A DNA stretch of 64,000 bases from Turneriella sp. (GTDB lineage Bacteria > Spirochaetota > Leptospiria > Turneriellales > Turneriellaceae), in NCBI GenBank assembly GCA_965279515.1, contig CBDIID010000003.1, positions 1,888,001 through 1,952,000 of the forward strand, written 5' to 3'. Positions 19,012 to 26,428 of this stretch are shown piece by piece. Each line of letters starts with the position of its first letter. Position 1 is the stretch's first letter. A program made the translations under genes and the position numbers. Under the pieces are notes generated by a model that was given only the letters and a program-made list of their open reading frames with translations, was not told the DNA's origin and ran no database searches.

Positions 19012-19138
19012 CGGATTGGCAATCTGACACTGTCAGGCAGACGAGCAAGGAAAAAATGCCTGCCATGCTGCGAATAGGCCGAAATCCCCGCCCTGTGCAA
19101 TCCACTTGACGCGACGCACCAAAGCACGATGCCCGCGG

Positions 19139-20350
19139 ATGCTCGCTGCGCTTCTGTCTCTGGTAAACGCCGGGGCCGGTCTCGACGCCCACCGCCGCCG
19201 CTACGTCGTCAATACGAACGTCTACGCGCTCATCGTCATTGCCATAACGCTCCCCTATCCTTTTATTTACCTCTACCTGCACGTCGACGTCGACCCGCTC
19301 ATTCTTTCGGGCTCGCTGATTTTTCTCGCCGCCTATTCCGGGGTAATTTTTTTGAATTACCTGACCCTGCATACCCTGGCGAAGCTGCTGTTTTTTGCGG
19401 CGGTGCTCTGCCAGCTGTTCTCGATCTGCGTGATCTTCGGTAAGGGCACGGGGCTCGACCAGTTTTTCTATGCGGCCTTTGTGGGGATCTTCTTCGTCGT
19501 CGACCGGCACCAGAAGATCATGATTATTCCTTCGCTGGCGGTGCTGGCGGCGGAATACCTGCTCATACAATACATCAACGCGTATATTGATCCGCTCGTA
19601 AAAATCTCGCCCGCTACCGCGACGATCATCAGCTATATCTCATCGGGCTCGGTGTTCTCGCTACTCGGCCTGCAGTGCCTGTTTTTTTACTGGGGAAATC
19701 TCAAAGCGGAAACGGATCTCGAAACCGCGCGGCGGCAATCTGACCAGCTGCTGCTGAATATTCTGCCCGAGCCGATTGCCGACGAGCTGAAAAAAACCGG
19801 CGCTGTCGAACCGGTCGAGCACGACTCCGTGACGGTGGTTTTCACCGATTTTGTCGGCTTCACCGCGAGTTCCGAATCGCGCAACCCGACCGATCTCTTG
19901 CGTGATCTCGACGACTGTTTCTCGGCCTTCGATGCGATCATTGAAAAACACGGGCTGGAGAAACTGAAGACGATTGGCGACGCCTACATGTTTGCAGGTG
20001 GTGTGCCGACTGATCTCGCCGACAACGCGGCGCAGTGCATTCTCGCGGCAAAAGAAATCGTCGCCTATGTCGAAAAACGCCGGTCGGATAACCCGCGTTT
20101 CTGGCAGATCCGCGTGGGCGTGCACACGGGGCATCTGATCGCGGGCGTGATTGGCCGCAAAAAATTCATCTACGACGTCTGGGGTGATACGGTCAACACG
20201 GCAAGCCGGCTCGAAGCGGCAGGCGAGCCGGGGCGGATCAACACCTCGGCGGCGACCTATGATTTAATTAAGAAAAAATTCACCTGCACACCGCGCGGCG
20301 AGATTGCAGTGAAGGGCAAGGGTCCGCTAACGATGTACTTCGTGGAATAG
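19139..20350 (+). CDS. Membrane class III adenylate/guanylate cyclase (alternative TTG start at 19106)
   Basis: LLLNILP, FTDFVGFT, KTIGDAYM, YDVWGDTVNTASRLE, VKGKG. Confidence 0.93.
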   Translation: MLAALLSLVNAGAGLDAHRRRYVVNTNVYALIVIAITLPYPFIYLYLHVDVDPLILSGSLIFLAAYSGVIFLNYLTLHTLAKLLFFAAVLCQLFSICVIFGKGTGLDQFFYAAFVGIFFVVDRHQKIMIIPSLAVLAAEYLLIQYINAYIDPLVKISPATATIISYISSGSVFSLLGLQCLFFYWGNLKAETDLETARRQSDQLLLNILPEPIADELKKTGAVEPVEHDSVTVVFTDFVGFTASSESRNPTDLLRDLDDCFSAFDAIIEKHGLEKLKTIGDAYMFAGGVPTDLADNAAQCILAAKEIVAYVEKRRSDNPRFWQIRVGVHTGHLIAGVIGRKKFIYDVWGDTVNTASRLEAAGEPGRINTSAATYDLIKKKFTCTPRGEIAVKGKGPLTMYFVE

Positions 20351-20473
20351 GCCTTGTCTGAAATGGGCGAAAAACTTCTTCCGAACGCCCCTGAGGGCCT
20401 GGCCCCTTTTGAACCTCCTCGACTTTTGAACAAAAATGGCTTGAAACCGCATTTGAACAGTATGTTTGAGCAC

Positions 20474-20704
20474 ATGCAAGGGACTTTACATAGGTATGTG
20501 GAAATAGACCCGGCTAAATACGACGGGAAGCCCGTAATTACGGGTACTCGAGTGCCCGTTCAGGCCCTCGTGATGCATTATCGGTCAGGTATGCTCTTAG
20601 AGGAAATACTTGAAGGGTACCCGAACATTACCTCAGCCCAGTTATTTGATGCATTAAGCTACTATTTTGATAATAAAACCGCGATCGATGCCGAATTAGA
20701 ATGA
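20474..20704 (+). CDS. DUF433-family antitoxin
   Basis: DPAKYDGKPVITGTRVPV...EEILEGYPNITSAQLFDALSYY. Confidence 0.9.
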   Translation: MQGTLHRYVEIDPAKYDGKPVITGTRVPVQALVMHYRSGMLLEEILEGYPNITSAQLFDALSYYFDNKTAIDAELE

Positions 20705-21036
20705 TTCGGCTGTATTTGGACGAGGACGTCCACAAGCAAGTAGCCCTTGCTCTCAGGCTAAGAGGGTATGATGTTGTGAGCGTTCATGAGCTGGAAATGT
20801 GGAATTTATCAGACGAAGAACAGCTAGCTTTCGCCACTCAAGACCACAGGGCGATATTCACGTTTAACCGCGGAGATTTTGCCAAATTACATGAGAATTG
20901 GCTATCTTTAGGGAAGAGCCACAACGGCATAATTACCAGTAAGCAACTTACACTTTCCGAAACAATTCAGAGGCTGAACAGGCTTCTATATGCGAAAAAG
21001 GCAGCAGAAATCGAAAACCAGCTTATTTGGTTATGA
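20701..21036 (+). CDS. DUF5615 (VapC45-like) PIN toxin
   Basis: LYLDEDV...LRLRGYDV...SDEEQLAFA...FTFNRGDF...HNGII; ATGA overlap with the antitoxin. Confidence 0.88.
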   Translation: MIRLYLDEDVHKQVALALRLRGYDVVSVHELEMWNLSDEEQLAFATQDHRAIFTFNRGDFAKLHENWLSLGKSHNGIITSKQLTLSETIQRLNRLLYAKKAAEIENQLIWL

Positions 21037-21096
21037 CTACGCAAGGTCAATATTCGAGCTTACGGGGCGAAGTTCATTAGTCCAATCGCCCACTTC

Positions 21097-21310
21097 AGAC
21101 AACAAAATTTACCTGCTGCGCCGCTGCGGTGCGGTAGCTCCTCGCGTGCTCGGCCCTACGCGCCAAAGATCGCGGACAAAGCACAAGCGGGGAGCTTGTT
21201 TTGTGCTTTGCCTGGAGGCGCTACGGGCGGATTGAGTGACGCAACATGGCTCTACAGGATGCAAAGTTGAACAAAGATTCACTCAACCTCAGGTAAATTC
21301 CGCGTTAGCT
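21097..21310 (+). repeat. attC-like recombination site 1 (long, branched hairpin)
   Basis: AGACAAC-AA-AATTTACCTG(21106-21115)...CAGGTAAATT(21290-21299)-CCGC-GTTAGCT; internal stems CAAAGCACAA/TTGTGCTTTG and TTGAGTGA/TCACTCAA. Confidence 0.7.
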
Positions 21311-21363
21311 GCCGTACCCAAGAATTTCAAAGAGTTCACGAAGAGTCAATTTTTCTAAAAAAC

Positions 21364-21400
21364 TTGACTCAATACGTATCCCTCAATATAGTCTACGTAT
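21364..21400 (+). promoter_or_regulatory. Sigma70 promoter TTGACT-17-TATAGT with two TACGTAT operator-like boxes; probably leaderless
   Basis: -35 at 21364-21369, -10 at 21387-21392, ATG at 21399; TACGTAT at 21373 and 21394. Confidence 0.75.
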
Positions 21401-21656
21401 GAGTGCTGTGAAACTGACGCTGAAGTTAGAAGAATCTGCCATCAATAAGGCTAAGACTTACGCTAAGGTTAATAGAACTAGCCTATCTAGATTGGTGGAG
21501 ACTTATTTTAATGAAATTTCGGGTGGCACAAAGAAAAAGGCTTCAGCGAAAATTTCGCCCCGCGTAAGGGAATTGTCAGGTATACTTAAGGGGGCAAATA
21601 TTGATTACAGATCCGAAGTTACTTCAATTCTCCGGAAAAAGCATGGTTTAGATTGA
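21399..21656 (+). CDS. RHH antitoxin (DUF6364-like)
   Basis: KLTLKLEESAINKAKTYAK...SLSRLVETYF...ISPRVRELSGIL...KKH. Confidence 0.85.
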   Translation: MSAVKLTLKLEESAINKAKTYAKVNRTSLSRLVETYFNEISGGTKKKASAKISPRVRELSGILKGANIDYRSEVTSILRKKHGLD

Positions 21657-22075
21657 AAAAGAAAGTATTCTTTGATTCGGACGTACTGCTCGATGTACTC
21701 ATCCAACGTCCCAAGCACTATGGGGAATCGGCTGAGGTTCTTAGCTTGGCCGATTCTAAGGTCGTAGACGGATACACCTCTACACTCATTTTGTGCAATT
21801 TGCATTATATCCTGCGAAAGCAATTAGGGGAAAAAGTGGCCATGCTTCATGTAGCAAAGTTGCTGGAAATGCTTGAAATACTCGACTTGCGAAAAAATGA
21901 CATTAGCGCCGCTATGAACCTCGGCATGCCAGATTTTGAAGATGCAATTCAATCATGCATCGCATTCAGGACGCGCATGGATTGGATAGTGACACGAAAC
22001 AGTAAAGACTTCAAGAAATCCTCTGTAAAACCCCTGATTCCGGGTGATTTTATCGAACTTGGTTACGGCAGATAA
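21653..22075 (+). CDS. PIN-domain (VapC-like) toxin
   Basis: FFDSDVLLD...DFEDAIQ...IVTRNSKDF; TTG start overlapping the antitoxin stop. Confidence 0.9.
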   Translation: MKKKVFFDSDVLLDVLIQRPKHYGESAEVLSLADSKVVDGYTSTLILCNLHYILRKQLGEKVAMLHVAKLLEMLEILDLRKNDISAAMNLGMPDFEDAIQSCIAFRTRMDWIVTRNSKDFKKSSVKPLIPGDFIELGYGR

Positions 22076-22250
22076 AAAAATTTAGCTGCGCGTGTGCTCC
22101 CTAAGGGAGATTCGCTTCGCGCATCCAGGGTCTCCGCAGCAAAACCCGCGGACAAAGCATAAGACGCTAGCTTACCAGCAGCAAGCCGGACACTTGTCTT
22201 GTGCTTTGCCCCGAAGTACTCCGTGCCCATGAAGCAATATAATAAATTCC
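22070..22250 (+). repeat. Degenerate attC-like site 2
   Basis: Shares CAGA.AA.AAAATTTA, CGCGGACAAAGCA.AAG...CTTGT.TTGTGCTTTGCC and TAAATTCC with site 1; AAC changed to AAA and the terminal GTT is lost. Confidence 0.6.
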
Positions 22251-22298
22251 TCCCCCGGAAACTCGTTTACAATTTGCCAGCAAATAACTCACAGCGCT

Positions 22299-22601
22299 AT
22301 GATAAAAATTCCGACCGATAAACCGTTCAAAATACCAGGGGTTGTGAAACAGTTAGTCATCGCGGTAGCAATCCTCGTTTTTTATGGAAATTGCCGCTCA
22401 ACCCCCGATCACCACGTCTTTTGTACCCAGGCCAAAATGCGCCGCGCCGAAGCCGGTAAAGGCACACCCAATGACAGACAAGTCCGCTGCCACGGCCTGA
22501 CCCAGGCGCGTTTAGCAGCGGCGCCGGGACGCGATTTTTCAAAGTACGCCGATTGTGTGCTCGAAGCCGAGAATAATATCACGGCGGGAAAATGCGAATA
22601 A
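22299..22601 (+). CDS. Small Cys-containing putative lipoprotein
   Basis: Hydrophobic stretch followed by YGN-C spirochaetal-type lipobox; four further Cys. Confidence 0.55.
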   Translation: MIKIPTDKPFKIPGVVKQLVIAVAILVFYGNCRSTPDHHVFCTQAKMRRAEAGKGTPNDRQVRCHGLTQARLAAAPGRDFSKYADCVLEAENNITAGKCE

Positions 22602-22620
22602 GGATGCTTTTGCCCATAAT

Positions 22621-23385
22621 ATGAAAAAAATCAACGCCCCACGCCGGATATTCGCCATTGCAGTAATCCTGCTGTTCCTCTGCAATCTCTCCGCTACGGA
22701 GCAGAGCCCGCCGAAATTCAAAGCCATCGCTTTTGACTATTTTGTACTCTTTGATCCAAACTCCGTAATTCCGACCGTCGAAGAAATTTATCCCGGGAAA
22801 GGCATGGAGTTCACTAAAATGTGGCGCAGCAAACAATTCGAGTATGGTTTCTTAAGATCGATTACCAATCGCCATGCCGATTTTTTCGAGGTTACCGGTG
22901 ATGCTTTGGAATACACTGCCGCCGCAATGAAACTAAAGTTAGAACCCGCAATACGAACCCGTCTTTTGAATGCTTATCTGACACTGAAACCCTGGCCCGA
23001 CACGATTGCGGCTCTAAAAAAACTAAAAGCCTCGGGGCTGCGGATTATCACCATCGCAAATTTCAGCAAAAAGATGCTGCAAGCCAATGCCGACAACGCC
23101 GGAATCACCGGTCTATTTGATGAATTGTTAAGTACAGAGGTCAATGGCACTTACAAACCTGATCCGCGCGCCTATGAGCTGGGCCTGAAAAGGTTGAATC
23201 TCAAAAAACATGAAATCGTATTTGCAGCCTTTGGCGGCTGGGATGCCTATGGAGCTAAGAATTTTGGATACCCGACCTACTGGGTAAACAGGTTCAACCT
23301 GCCGACTGAGAATCTGGGCATTTCTGCAGACCGGACCTCAAACGATATTCAGGGCCTGCTGGATTTTATTTTCCCGAAACCCTAA
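22621..23385 (+). CDS. Haloacid dehalogenase type II-like HAD hydrolase with N-terminal signal peptide
   Basis: AFDYFVLFD, WRSKQFEY, YKPDPRAY, GWDAYGAKNFG, WVNR. Confidence 0.85.
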   Translation: MKKINAPRRIFAIAVILLFLCNLSATEQSPPKFKAIAFDYFVLFDPNSVIPTVEEIYPGKGMEFTKMWRSKQFEYGFLRSITNRHADFFEVTGDALEYTAAAMKLKLEPAIRTRLLNAYLTLKPWPDTIAALKKLKASGLRIITIANFSKKMLQANADNAGITGLFDELLSTEVNGTYKPDPRAYELGLKRLNLKKHEIVFAAFGGWDAYGAKNFGYPTYWVNRFNLPTENLGISADRTSNDIQGLLDFIFPKP

Positions 23386-23396
23386 CGATACGACGG

Positions 23397-23834
23397 TCAG
23401 ACTACCGTAACCGAGATAATCTTATCGTCTTTGCGCAGCGCATTGACAACGTCCATATCGTGCGTGCGGCCGAAAACCGTGTGCACACCGTCGAGATGCG
23501 GCTGCGCCTTGTGGCAAATAAAGAACTGGCTGCCACCGGTATCTTTGCCCGCATGCGCCATCGACAGGCTGCCCGCCATGTGTTTGTTCTCGTTGATCTC
23601 GCACTTGATCGTATAGCCGGGACCACCCGTCCCTGGCATGCCTGACGCGCCCGCGCGTGTATTGGGACAACCGCCCTGGACCATAAAATTGGCGATCACA
23701 CGGTGAAAGGCGAGACCGTCGTAAAATTTCTCATTGGCGAGCTTTACGAAGTTGGCGACCGTTGCGGGAGCTTCCTTGTCATAGAGTTCAAAGCTCATTT
23801 TCCCTTTACTGGTTTCGATAATGACTTCAGGCAT
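23397..23834 (-). CDS. Cyclophilin-type peptidyl-prolyl isomerase
   Basis: [45 protein letters not shown]. Confidence 0.95.
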
Positions 23835-23883
23835 AAGGTTCAAATGCATTTTCCAGTCGGCGCGACAAGAAATTCAGAACTGC

Positions 23884-24453
23884 CTAGATCCTCAGCGAAG
23901 CCCGGAAACCCCTGACGGCATAATAAGATTCCGCGCCATTATGGTAGGTGAAGACCTGATCGTAGCGGCGATCGCAAAAGATCGCGCCGCCCAGTTTACG
24001 GATATGCGCCGGAGTTTTGACCCAGCTTGAAGTTTTTGTATCGAATTCGCCGAAACTTTGCAGCTTACGGTATTCTTCTTCGGTTAAAATCTCAACACCC
24101 ATCGCCGCCGCCATGTTCACGGCGCTGTCCTTCGGCTTGTGTTCTTTGCGGGCTTTTAACGCTTCGTGGTCATAGCACAGGCTGCGGCGCTCCTTCGGGC
24201 TTTCGGCAGCGCAATCATAAAAAACGTACTCTCCCGTCTTTTTATCATGCGCCACAACATCGGGCTCGCCGCCGGTCCTTTCCATTTCAGAAAGCGACCA
24301 CAGTTTATCCGCAATGCTCACGAGCTTTGCCTGCACTTTGTCCCAGGAAAGATCTTTGTGCCGGTTCGTATTTTTCTCAAAGCGGGATTTCAGTATTTTG
24401 AAAAAATCTTCTTGTTGCTTCGGCGAAAGTTTATTTATAGCAACCTTGGCCAT
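23884..24453 (-). CDS. DUF4256-family protein
   Basis: MERTGGEPDVV, ESPKERRSLCYD, FDTKTSSW, YHNGAESYYAVRGFR. Confidence 0.85.
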   Translation of the reverse strand: MAKVAINKLSPKQQEDFFKILKSRFEKNTNRHKDLSWDKVQAKLVSIADKLWSLSEMERTGGEPDVVAHDKKTGEYVFYDCAAESPKERRSLCYDHEALKARKEHKPKDSAVNMAAAMGVEILTEEEYRKLQSFGEFDTKTSSWVKTPAHIRKLGGAIFCDRRYDQVFTYHNGAESYYAVRGFRASLRI

Positions 24454-24465
24454 GGTTGTCAGACC

Positions 24466-24942
24466 CTAAAGCGGAGTAATATCACCCTGAGCAACGAAGT
24501 CTCTCTGCTTTCCCTTTTTATCCGTATAAAAATATAACCTTTTACCCAGTGTGGGATAATCACACACGTCGAATTCCTGCCTGTCACCGCCAACGAGGTA
24601 GACCAGATCTTCGTTACCCGAATTTACTAATGCATGGCTCGGGCCTTCCGCGGGAAGTCCTACGAAATCACCCGCGACAACTTCAACCTTCTCGTCGTCG
24701 AGCTCAAGCATACCCTTACCCGAAATAATATAAATGAACTCGTCTGCTAATTTATGCGAATGCCGGACCGTCGTCGACTTGCCCGGTTTTACGTGCGTCA
24801 TATGGATGCCGATGCGGCTTAAACCTGTGAGATCGCCCAGCGAAACCGAATGCCTTTCGACGCTGGTATCGAGCGGGTGCGATTTTTTCTCGAGCGAAGC
24901 CTCGAGATTTCCCGTTTTAACTACAAACTTTTTCAAAGCCAT
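24466..24942 (-). CDS. Cupin-domain protein
   Basis: LGDLTGLSRIGIH, HSH...EFIYIISG, HALVN...YLVGG, DYP. Confidence 0.88.
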   Translation of the reverse strand: MALKKFVVKTGNLEASLEKKSHPLDTSVERHSVSLGDLTGLSRIGIHMTHVKPGKSTTVRHSHKLADEFIYIISGKGMLELDDEKVEVVAGDFVGLPAEGPSHALVNSGNEDLVYLVGGDRQEFDVCDYPTLGKRLYFYTDKKGKQRDFVAQGDITPL

Positions 24943-24951
24943 ACCCGAAGG

Positions 24952-25762: not shown

Positions 25763-25799
25763 TTGACATGTTATCACTACCGTTGAACATGATAACATG
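25763..25799 (+). promoter_or_regulatory. TTGACA plus a perfect 10-bp inverted repeat CATGTTATCA-N13-TGATAACATG (TA operator)
   Basis: Arms at 25767-25776 and 25790-25799; the right arm covers the antitoxin ATG. Confidence 0.7.
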
Positions 25800-26024
25800 A
25801 TTCGGACACAGATCTCTCTCGACGCCGAGGTCTATGAAGAAGCTAAAGTCTATGCTGCCGAAAGCGGGGTATCTTTGGCTGAGTTCTGCAGACAGAGCAT
25901 CAATGAACAGCTTGTCAAATACCGCAAAGCCGGTCCCATTGCGCGCTTCGCTGGTGTCTACCTCGGGCAAGGCGATGATAGCTCAACCGTCGACGAAGTC
26001 GTTTATGGCAAACGTTATGTATGA
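25797..26024 (+). CDS. CopG/RHH antitoxin (VapB-like)
   Basis: MIRTQISL...SGVSLAEFCRQSI...VDEVVYG. Confidence 0.85.
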   Translation: MIRTQISLDAEVYEEAKVYAAESGVSLAEFCRQSINEQLVKYRKAGPIARFAGVYLGQGDDSSTVDEVVYGKRYV

Positions 26025-26428
26025 GCGAAAAGGTATTCATCGATAGCGGCATCTTGATCGCGTATATGAATGCCCGCGACCGCTGGCATCAGCAGGCGCT
26101 CTACCTGTTCCAGGAAAAAAATATTCAACCTTTCACTTCTGAACTTGTGATCTCCGAAACCTATTCCTGGTTTCTGCACCAGGCCGGCGAAGAGATCGCC
26201 CGCCAGTTCCGCTTGTTTGTGAAGGCCATACCTAAATTAAAAATTTTATTCATGAATGCTGACGGTCTCGATGCAACGGCGGTAATGCTCGATAAGCACC
26301 GGGGGGCCAAGCTGACCTACGTCGATGCGGCAAGCCTTGTGCATCTCGAGGTGCAGAAGATTCATACAGTCTGGTCGACAGATTACCATCTGTCCCTGAC
26401 CGGCAGGACAATTAAGCCCGTTAAATAG
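26021..26428 (+). CDS. VapC PIN toxin
   Basis: FIDSGILIA...D..H, VISET, TYVDAAS, STDYHL; ATGA overlap. Confidence 0.9.
   Translation: MSEKVFIDSGILIAYMNARDRWHQQALYLFQEKNIQPFTSELVISETYSWFLHQAGEEIARQFRLFVKAIPKLKILFMNADGLDATAVMLDKHRGAKLTYVDAASLVHLEVQKIHTVWSTDYHLSLTGRTIKPVK

Follow-up and report, generated by a model that had tools for sequence, protein, structure and literature searches.

We analysed a 64-kb stretch of the Turneriella sp. genome (contig CBDIID010000003.1, positions 1,888,001 to 1,952,000), called the window in the following and used for all numbering. It carries two toxin-antitoxin (TA) cassettes that, together with their trailing repeats, occupy positions 20354-22260, i.e. approximately 1.9 kb. 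Very probably, this piece is a two-cassette outpost of an integron-like system of the same genome, likely inserted by G|TT recombination of a folded attC-like site. Each unit is a TA operon that is bounded in the same way as the approximately 120 cassettes of two large arrays in this genome. A preliminary description of the window had proposed such a cassette array, dispersed away from its integrase and inserted behind a cyclase gene.

Architecture of the locus

The insertion site is marked on the left by an adenylate/guanylate cyclase gene (19106-20350, plus strand; Pfam PF00211, E = 2.2e-52). Its stop codon TAG occupies positions 20348-20350, and the first cassette base is found 3 bp further on. 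Cassette 1 (20354-21103, plus strand) begins with the crossover TT, and its last bases are the AAC triplet in the R'' box. Its 5' arm TTGTCTGAAATGGGCGA (20354-20370, plus strand) is complementary to TCGCCCACTTCAGACAA (21086-21102) at 16 of 17 positions, with an A.C pair at position 11 as the sole mismatch. The 3' arm (21086-21103, plus strand) provides the unit end TCGCCCACTTCAGACAAC and closes with the R''-type box CAGACAAC. Cassette 2 (21305-22075, plus strand) opens with TTAGCTGCCGTA at 21305, directly after G21304, and this start is complementary to TACGGCAGATAA (22064-22075), which contains the TAA stop codon of the unit. Unit 2 departs from the family in having GATAAA as R'' instead of ...AAC and a G:C pair at position 11. 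All strings quoted in the preliminary description were found at their positions. The distance to the cyclase stop codon and the end pairing of both units that it had reported were confirmed, and for unit 2 the pairing extends to 16 of 18 positions (21305-21322 with 22058-22075). Over 20 nt each unit reaches an own-end complementarity of 16/20.

Each unit is followed by a repeat, and a repeat comparison within the window verified that the two repeats are related. They are also the only two matches of the repeat-family profile (see below) in the window. The first repeat is an intact attC-like site (21092-21315, plus strand; nhmmer E = 2.5e-60 for 21092-21313). It is composed of the R'' box CAGACAAC, an inner stem formed by AATTTACCTG (21106-21115) and CAGGTAAATT (21290-21299), a three-hairpin centre and the R' box GCG|TTAGCT, in which the G of G|TT is position 21304. 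The second site (22076-22260, plus strand) is decayed. The profile matched it at E = 1.9e-8 (22065-22233) over model positions 1-145 only, and it retains just the 5' module and the central hairpin; neither an outer stem nor a recognisable G|TT was found in its DNA fold or profile match. Its nearest copies are sites of small satellites, C3:3634105 (76% over 127 nt) and C3:2806473 (86% over 66 nt). The claim of long attC-like sites behind both units thus held for the anatomy, while the second site turned out to be degraded.

The window contains no tyrosine recombinase gene, and all four such genes of the genome fall outside of it. Two site-profile matches without a recombinase gene agree with the proposed cluster of attC sites lacking an integron-integrase (CALIN). 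Because the first attC is intact and the second decayed, the locus would be a fossilising outpost of this type. The G+C contents of the cassettes (45.6% for cassette 1, 41.5% for cassette 2) compare with 56.5% for the cyclase gene and 52-56% for the flanks, i.e. the composition of both cassettes is foreign to the flanks.

The repeat family in the genome

We searched the genome (4.9 Mb, 3 contigs) by BLAST using the two repeats of the locus as queries. After merging, 132 sites were obtained: 68 in C3:93006-169913, 49 in C3:3734384-3804585 and 15 elsewhere, including this locus. A profile built from aligned sites gave 156 matches, with 75 and 53 in the two arrays and 28 elsewhere. Each of the two main arrays is approximately 75 kb long. 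Their sites follow each other mostly at 0.5-2 kb and keep one orientation throughout. The repeat behind unit 1 is approximately 91% identical to array copies, and site copies reach the same value within and between congeners. The search for repeat copies at gene ends that had been suggested for this locus thus yielded approximately 130 further copies.

We furthermore compared 31 genomes, namely this genome, 13 congeners and 17 others of the family and order. Sites were present in 12 of the 13 congeners as well as in one other genus of the family (g4), and in none of 12 genomes from other families of the order. In congener G011 the sites spread across approximately 200 kb. Congener G004 (98% complete, 250 contigs) holds a recombinase homologue (C161:554-1372) and gave no site match at E <= 0.001.

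At the low end of the first array, two IS481-like transposase genes with an integrase core are found (C3:83000-93500 region). Site remnants lie beyond these transposases at C3:85779-85887 and 90771-90849, and a break of the array by an insertion sequence (IS) may have occurred there.

Cassette ends and position of the crossover

Well-preserved sites are preceded by ...NNNAAC and end with ...CC(A/G)CG|TTNNNN. We compared cassette ends using the 20 nt from the G of GTT and the 20 nt up to and including AAC. Within one and the same cassette the ends were complementary at a median of 17/20 positions, and 65 of 90 array cassettes reached at least 16. For the arms that flank one site, and hence belong to neighbouring cassettes, the median was only 10/20, and 5 of 93 reached at least 16. 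This equals the level of random arm pairs, 4.3% of which reached at least 16/20, such that the own-end pairing is clearly beyond chance. At positions 1-3 the bases G, T and T were found in 89, 90 and 90 of 90 cassettes, their pairing partners being C, A and A. Position 11, outside the R box, is an A.C pair in 88 of the 90, i.e. a mismatch in the top strand and a G.T wobble in the bottom strand. Because the cassette ends pair with each other and not with the arm of the neighbour, the crossover can be placed at G|TT or directly beside it, which is also where integron cassettes recombine.

These data also bear on a quite different origin of the repeats. According to it, the 200-nt repeats are miniature inverted-repeat transposable elements (MITE) or resemble repetitive extragenic palindromes (REP), which inserted into the terminator hairpins behind ordinary genes, and the cassettes are not mobile. 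The terminal inverted repeats that the repeat itself possesses (21106-21115 and 21290-21299) and the many copies at gene ends would be in agreement with this. A split hairpin, however, predicts that the arms at the same site are complementary. The contrast between own-end and same-site pairing (17/20 versus 10/20, the latter being the random level) rules out such a hairpin insertion. Moreover, the ends of cassette 1 are shared by two genomes in which it adjoins repeats of different subfamilies, and in six congeners the arrays adjoin a divergent tyrosine recombinase gene (see below). We thus regard a MITE or REP origin as extremely improbable.

The sites themselves were characterized by their folding. 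Both ends were resolved for 119 of 129 sites, giving 118 distinct ones, of which 113 (220-236 nt including the 12-nt boxes) were aligned and five were dropped because of their length. The consensus DNA fold of the 113 sites is a four-way junction made of an outer stem and three hairpins. It scored better for the bottom strand (-32.3) than for the top strand (-26.9). Imperfect inverted repeats R''-L''...L'-R' surround the variable centre as in attC sites. The branched, three-hairpin centre measures approximately 180 nt and the whole attC-like site approximately 215-225 nt. Every helix contains several Watson-Crick pair types: columns 91/124 hold 37 AT, 58 GC and 17 CG pairs, columns 151/213 hold 36 GC, 56 TA and 18 CG pairs, and columns 152/212 hold 38 AT, 37 TA and 35 GC pairs. 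The 113 sites group in subfamilies, such that the number of independent events is below 113; a column with several pair types nevertheless requires several compensated changes. The two sides of the inner stem co-vary by subfamily as well, TTTTACGCG/CGCGTAAAA, TTTACACG/CGTGTAAA and AATACCCG/CGGGTATT, with AATTTACCTG/CAGGTAAATT in the window copy. For site 1 the outer stem also forms in the single-sequence DNA fold. A scan of 20200-22400 against Rfam found no family on the repeats, the two sub-threshold matches (SNORD66, RsmY) being due to chance.

The same cassettes in other genomes and metagenomes

A copy of cassette 1 is located inside an array of congener G003 (G003:C23:18943-19709, 72% identical). 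The homology begins exactly at the TT and is preceded by the attC end ...CAGGTAAATTCCGCG (...CCGCG|TT); the copy is followed by an attC from another subfamily. Despite the diverged coding part, both arms are identical (17/17 for the 5' arm, 18/18 for the 3' arm). Together with the pairing of cassette ends, this agrees with the cassette nature of the units and their recombination at G|TT, both of which had been part of the original proposal. Homologues of cassette 2 were found in G012, G009 and G010 at 65-66% identity, and the G012 copy has the canonical ends GTTAGCTGACAT ... CAGCTAAC.

In public metagenomes, for which the runs consisted of contigs, one groundwater and one wastewater run contained contigs that span both cassettes at approximately 91-99% identity. 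One contig of run X2 returns from 21311 to 21092 (by 220 nt, 90% likeness), which most likely stems from closely spaced array sites and not from a circle. Runs X5 and X8 do not cover the cyclase side or the region right of 22156, which is not readable as absence.

The associated recombinase

We next consider the enzyme that may act on these sites. In none of the 31 genomes did a gene exceed the cut-off of the integron-integrase model TIGR02249. Of the four tyrosine recombinase genes in this genome, none was found at either end of either array. The candidate recombinase has 366 aa (C3:2926093-2927194) and scores 161 bits with TIGR02249 (cut-off 265) and 196 bits with NF040815 (cut-off 220). It stays under every curated cut-off, including those for XerC (335) and XerD (330). 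Like recombinases of the Xer and XerA type, it finds its best structural-database match in the XerC-like 4A8E (E = 5e-33) and is continuous across the region where the IntI insertion sits. When aligned to VchIntIA (2A3V) it splits in two pieces, with query residues 271-295 opposite chain residues 181-246, such that approximately 41 aa of the IntI insertion are missing. Unlike the Xer type, in turn, it ends with ...SPL, as IntI4 does, falls below the curated cut-offs and belongs to a family with an integron-like position beside cassette arrays. In addition it carries an N-terminal extension of approximately 100 aa.

This position was seen in congeners. In G002, G011, G005, G007, G012 and G003, chosen because recombinase and sites share one contig, homologues (39-53% identical) are divergently oriented at 0.46-1.65 kb from the first site. 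For G013 the listed matches place gene and sites approximately 16 kb apart on a single contig, and in G001, G006 and G008 they are on separate contigs. The suggested search for an IntI-type recombinase therefore had a mixed outcome: a classical IntI was found in none of the 31 genomes, and an IntI-like gene stands beside the arrays in six congeners. Judging solely by position and family, we infer that the 366-aa type of recombinase is the enzyme for these sites, its activity being predicted.

A truncated site remnant (C3:2929088-2929180) is found at a distance of 2 kb to the recombinase gene of this genome (minus strand, L013 2094-3194); the remnant lies on the same strand and runs directly into a lipoprotein gene. 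The large distance of the recombinase gene from both arrays suggests a rearrangement. The array-adjacent recombinase gene of G003 (G003:C44:148500-154658) is split in two frames (a 239-aa ORF, two tblastn pieces), which points to a pseudogene or else to an error of the assembly.

A scan of species genomes with the recombinase alignment, leaving out the own genus, returned 80 loci of 33-47% identity from very diverse phyla. Within these loci the attC profile gave two marginal matches only (E = 0.016 and 0.019). Both lie in metagenome-assembled genomes of Spirochaetota (L113 8748-8779, L125 7726-7758), cover the first 33 profile positions and are found at a distance of 0.9-1.9 kb to the gene; next to neither of them was there a repeat array. 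The scan thus did not trace the system beyond the family.

An alternative would be that the arrays are remnants of a classical integron whose canonical IntI has since been lost, the Xer-like recombinase nearby being unrelated to them. The AAC/GTT triplets, the layout of the R and L boxes and the crossover are indeed those of classical attC sites, and CALINs without IntI are common according to PMC4889954. However, none of the 31 genomes of the order exceeds the TIGR02249 cut-off, site copies are up to approximately 91% identical within and between congeners, and a single recombinase family holds the divergent integron position at 0.46-1.65 kb in six congeners. We therefore consider a classical remnant very unlikely.

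Empty sites and extent of the insertion

Orthologues of the cyclase gene (72-79% identical) with conserved upstream synteny were found in 12 congeners, and in six of these we compared the downstream region. In four of the six (G011, G002, G007, G003) the convergent yebC gene follows approximately 10-45 nt after the cyclase gene, i.e. the site is empty. G008 carries unrelated 660 nt between both genes and G013 other genes at this position, such that the gap between cyclase and yebC is variable across the genus. In none of the six were the TA genes present at this locus.

In this genome the gap amounts to 4.6 kb (20351-24951). The part right of the cassettes (22261-24951, no strand assigned) encodes a 100-aa ORF, a HAD hydrolase, a cyclophilin, a DUF4256 protein and a cupin. 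This gene set is missing between cyclase and yebC in G011, G002, G007 and G003. Within 22261-24951 we found no inverted-repeat arms with end pairing and no attC profile match. With respect to the extent of the inserted DNA, the earlier proposal thus applies to the left 1.9 kb, which is built from cassettes, and the strain-specific segment as a whole is longer.

The extent is also where a rival explanation has to be weighed. The locus might have arisen from one larger strain-specific insertion or rearrangement, comprising either the whole 4.6 kb or a fragment of a broken array that an IS or homologous recombination carried here, without any attC-type insertion at this place. The segment missing in relatives is 4.6 kb long and its right 2.7 kb is not cassette-built; the base at the left junction is C and not G, and the right junction is unreadable. 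The variable gap (660 nt in G008, other genes in G013) and the IS481-type transposases that flank the first array point in the same direction. On the other hand, the left boundary coincides with the cassette crossover to the base, the homology to the G003 array starts at the TT, and right of 22260 the segment contains no IS, attC remnant or repeat. We therefore regard a larger event as unlikely. Taken together, a left boundary that matches the crossover to the nucleotide, the empty sites in relatives and the copy in the G003 array favour insertion of an excised circle at a non-attC site.

Several observations nevertheless weigh against an outpost of two cassettes inserted by attC-type recombination. 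The base ahead of cassette 1 is a C (GCC|TT), no G|TT can be recognised at the right end, and of the two sites the second has decayed. The right 2.7 kb of the 4.6-kb strain-specific segment lacks cassette anatomy, so a larger, different event may have taken place; this part may stem from the event that brought the cassettes or from a separate one. The fold of site 1 is only modestly better than that of shuffled sequences (z = -1.7 for the bottom, -1.6 for the top strand). In this genome the recombinase gene is located apart from both arrays, and its identity to the array-adjacent copy of G002 is only 39%. An excised form or circle of the locus was seen in no contig of the public runs, and a promoter scan for unit 1 found none. 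Finally, six other satellites are not TA-rich: one of their 24 ORFs has a weak antitoxin-type (MqsA-like) match, which is below threshold (26.4 versus 30 bits).

The preliminary description had named three outcomes that would speak against it, namely no further repeat copies at gene ends, no IntI in the genome or its relatives and TA genes fixed at this locus across species. Repeat copies were found in large number, an IntI-like recombinase adjoins the arrays of relatives, and the TA genes occur at this locus in 0 of 6 congeners with an empty site in four of them. All three outcomes thus failed to appear, and its interpretation is supported.

At the cyclase end, TTCGTGGAATAGGCC|TT (20338-20356) resembles the L'-R' end of the site, CAGGTAAATTCCGCG|TT, at 6 of 12 positions. 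This likeness may be a weak mimic that guided the insertion, or chance.

Proposed course of the insertion

For the outpost the following course can be proposed. A cassette circle would have been excised from an array. In the circle, the end stem of 17-20 bp with its G.T wobble in the bottom strand would re-form across the junction. The circle would then have recombined with a non-attC site beside the cyclase gene, catalysed presumably by the IntI/Xer-like tyrosine recombinase of 366 aa of the genus, which is without the IntI-specific insertion. The outpost should by now be largely immobile, with cassette 1 lacking an upstream attC and the second attC lacking its outer stem. The two TA operons could be maintained by their own expression and by addiction; unit 2 has a conserved predicted promoter of its own. 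Addiction may in this way explain the persistence of these two cassettes; it would be no general rule for outposts, since the other satellites are not TA-rich.

More tentatively, one may think of a second kind of integron. Its cassettes would have a closing stem of their own, 17-20 bp long and marked by a G.T wobble, that exists only in the circle, its sites would be 220-nt four-way junctions, and its recombinase would be Xer-like without the I2 insertion. Such a system could also land at ordinary sites, e.g. at the 3' end of a housekeeping gene, with the present locus as a natural record. We consider this possible though rather doubtful at present.

The arrays of the genus extend up to approximately 200 kb, with sites of twice the usual length and a sole associated recombinase that lacks the IntI insertion. 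If this holds true, gene-capture platforms are more varied in form than detection tools assume. To this the locus adds what the large arrays are unable to reveal, namely one dated insertion for which relatives have empty sites, and a cassette that recurs within the array of a congener. Both findings together are comparative evidence that units move and can land outside of the platform. The locus is also a small and clean substrate for tests, comprising an intact and a decayed site as well as a known target sequence.

Comparison with known systems

TA cassettes of chromosomal integrons are two-gene operons with overlapping genes in which the antitoxin comes first. The units described here share the overlapping two-gene layout with the antitoxin first, and unit 2 has its own predicted promoter with a palindromic operator. 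They differ in the predicted families, DUF433 with DUF5615 and DUF6364 with PIN_3.

With the superintegron of Vibrio cholerae (V. cholerae repeats, VCR; IntIA, 2A3V) the system shares AAC...GTT triplets, the R''-L''...L'-R' layout and long arrays in which the cassettes, promoterless or of the TA type, all point one way. Alike are also the G|TT crossover with the first cassette bases pairing with the own R'', the better folding of the bottom strand and a divergent integrase-type gene at the head of the array, which is found here in six congeners and not in this genome. Unlike in Vibrio, the sites measure approximately 215-225 nt with a covarying three-hairpin centre of approximately 180 nt, and the cassette ends pair over 17-20 bp past the crossover, position 11 being a fixed A.C. 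The recombinase differs as well by the missing 41 aa (approximately) of the IntI insertion and by the N-terminal extension of approximately 100 aa.

For the variable terminal structure of attC sites PMC4889954 gives 20-100 nt, a range that the branched centre of approximately 180 nt exceeds. The same paper (Cury et al. 2016) describes CALINs, which the locus resembles by two attC-type sites without a nearby integrase, and names secondary-site insertion and rearrangement as their origins. It differs from them by its oversized sites and by a genome without any classical IntI. A complete integron has an IntI, a tyrosine recombinase with the IntI-specific additional domain that scores above the TIGR02249 cut-off, and none was found in the 31 genomes. 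The IntI-specific insertion is considered necessary for integrons to recombine folded single-stranded attC sites (see PMC4792948 and PMC7790495). PMC8352920, as far as excerpted, models attC sites of Spirochaetes and names no genus. In the full-text literature we found no paper on integrons in Turneriella or on integron attC sites in Leptonema; a broader search returned classical-integron work only.

Gene content and predicted promoter

Unit 1 contains a DUF433 antitoxin-type gene (20475-20704, plus strand; Pfam PF04255, E = 5.1e-19) and a DUF5615 toxin-type gene, PIN-like and related to Mut7-C (20701-21036, plus strand; Pfam PF18480, E = 4.6e-17). The mechanically called open reading frame of the DUF433 gene begins with TTG at 20354, and the ATG that is kept in the G003 homologue lies at 20475. 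Unit 2 contains a DUF6364 antitoxin-type gene (21399-21656, plus strand; Pfam PF19891, E = 2.3e-20) and a PIN_3 toxin-type gene with a PIN domain (21653-22075, plus strand; Pfam PF13470, E = 1.5e-17). In both pairs the genes overlap by 4 nt (ATGA for DUF433/DUF5615). Both units follow the type II layout, i.e. a small antitoxin gene is followed by an overlapping toxin gene of known fold. They are apparently intact type II-like TA operons with predicted toxin and antitoxin roles. We searched this genome for close paralogues of the four genes and found none; their closest relatives are 32-38% identical and located in arrays.

The preliminary description had stated that TA cassettes typically carry promoters of their own, which is evident for unit 2 only. 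Its predicted promoter region (21343-21392, plus strand) contains TTGACT-17-TATAGT at 21364-21392, which matches at 10 of 12 positions and is the best promoter match in the region. It is overlapped by the palindrome GAGTCAATTTTT/AAAACTTGACTC and by two TACGTAT boxes. In all four cassette 2 homologues compared (4/4), TTGAC and both TACGTAT boxes are invariant upstream of the first gene. The region 21343-21392 is thus likely an autoregulated TA promoter, as predicted from these conserved elements.

A further TA-like layout is found just past yebC (window 25797-26428), where two small ORFs (75 and 135 aa) have 4 nt in common. The 135-aa ORF is 83-84% conserved in G011, G002 and G008.

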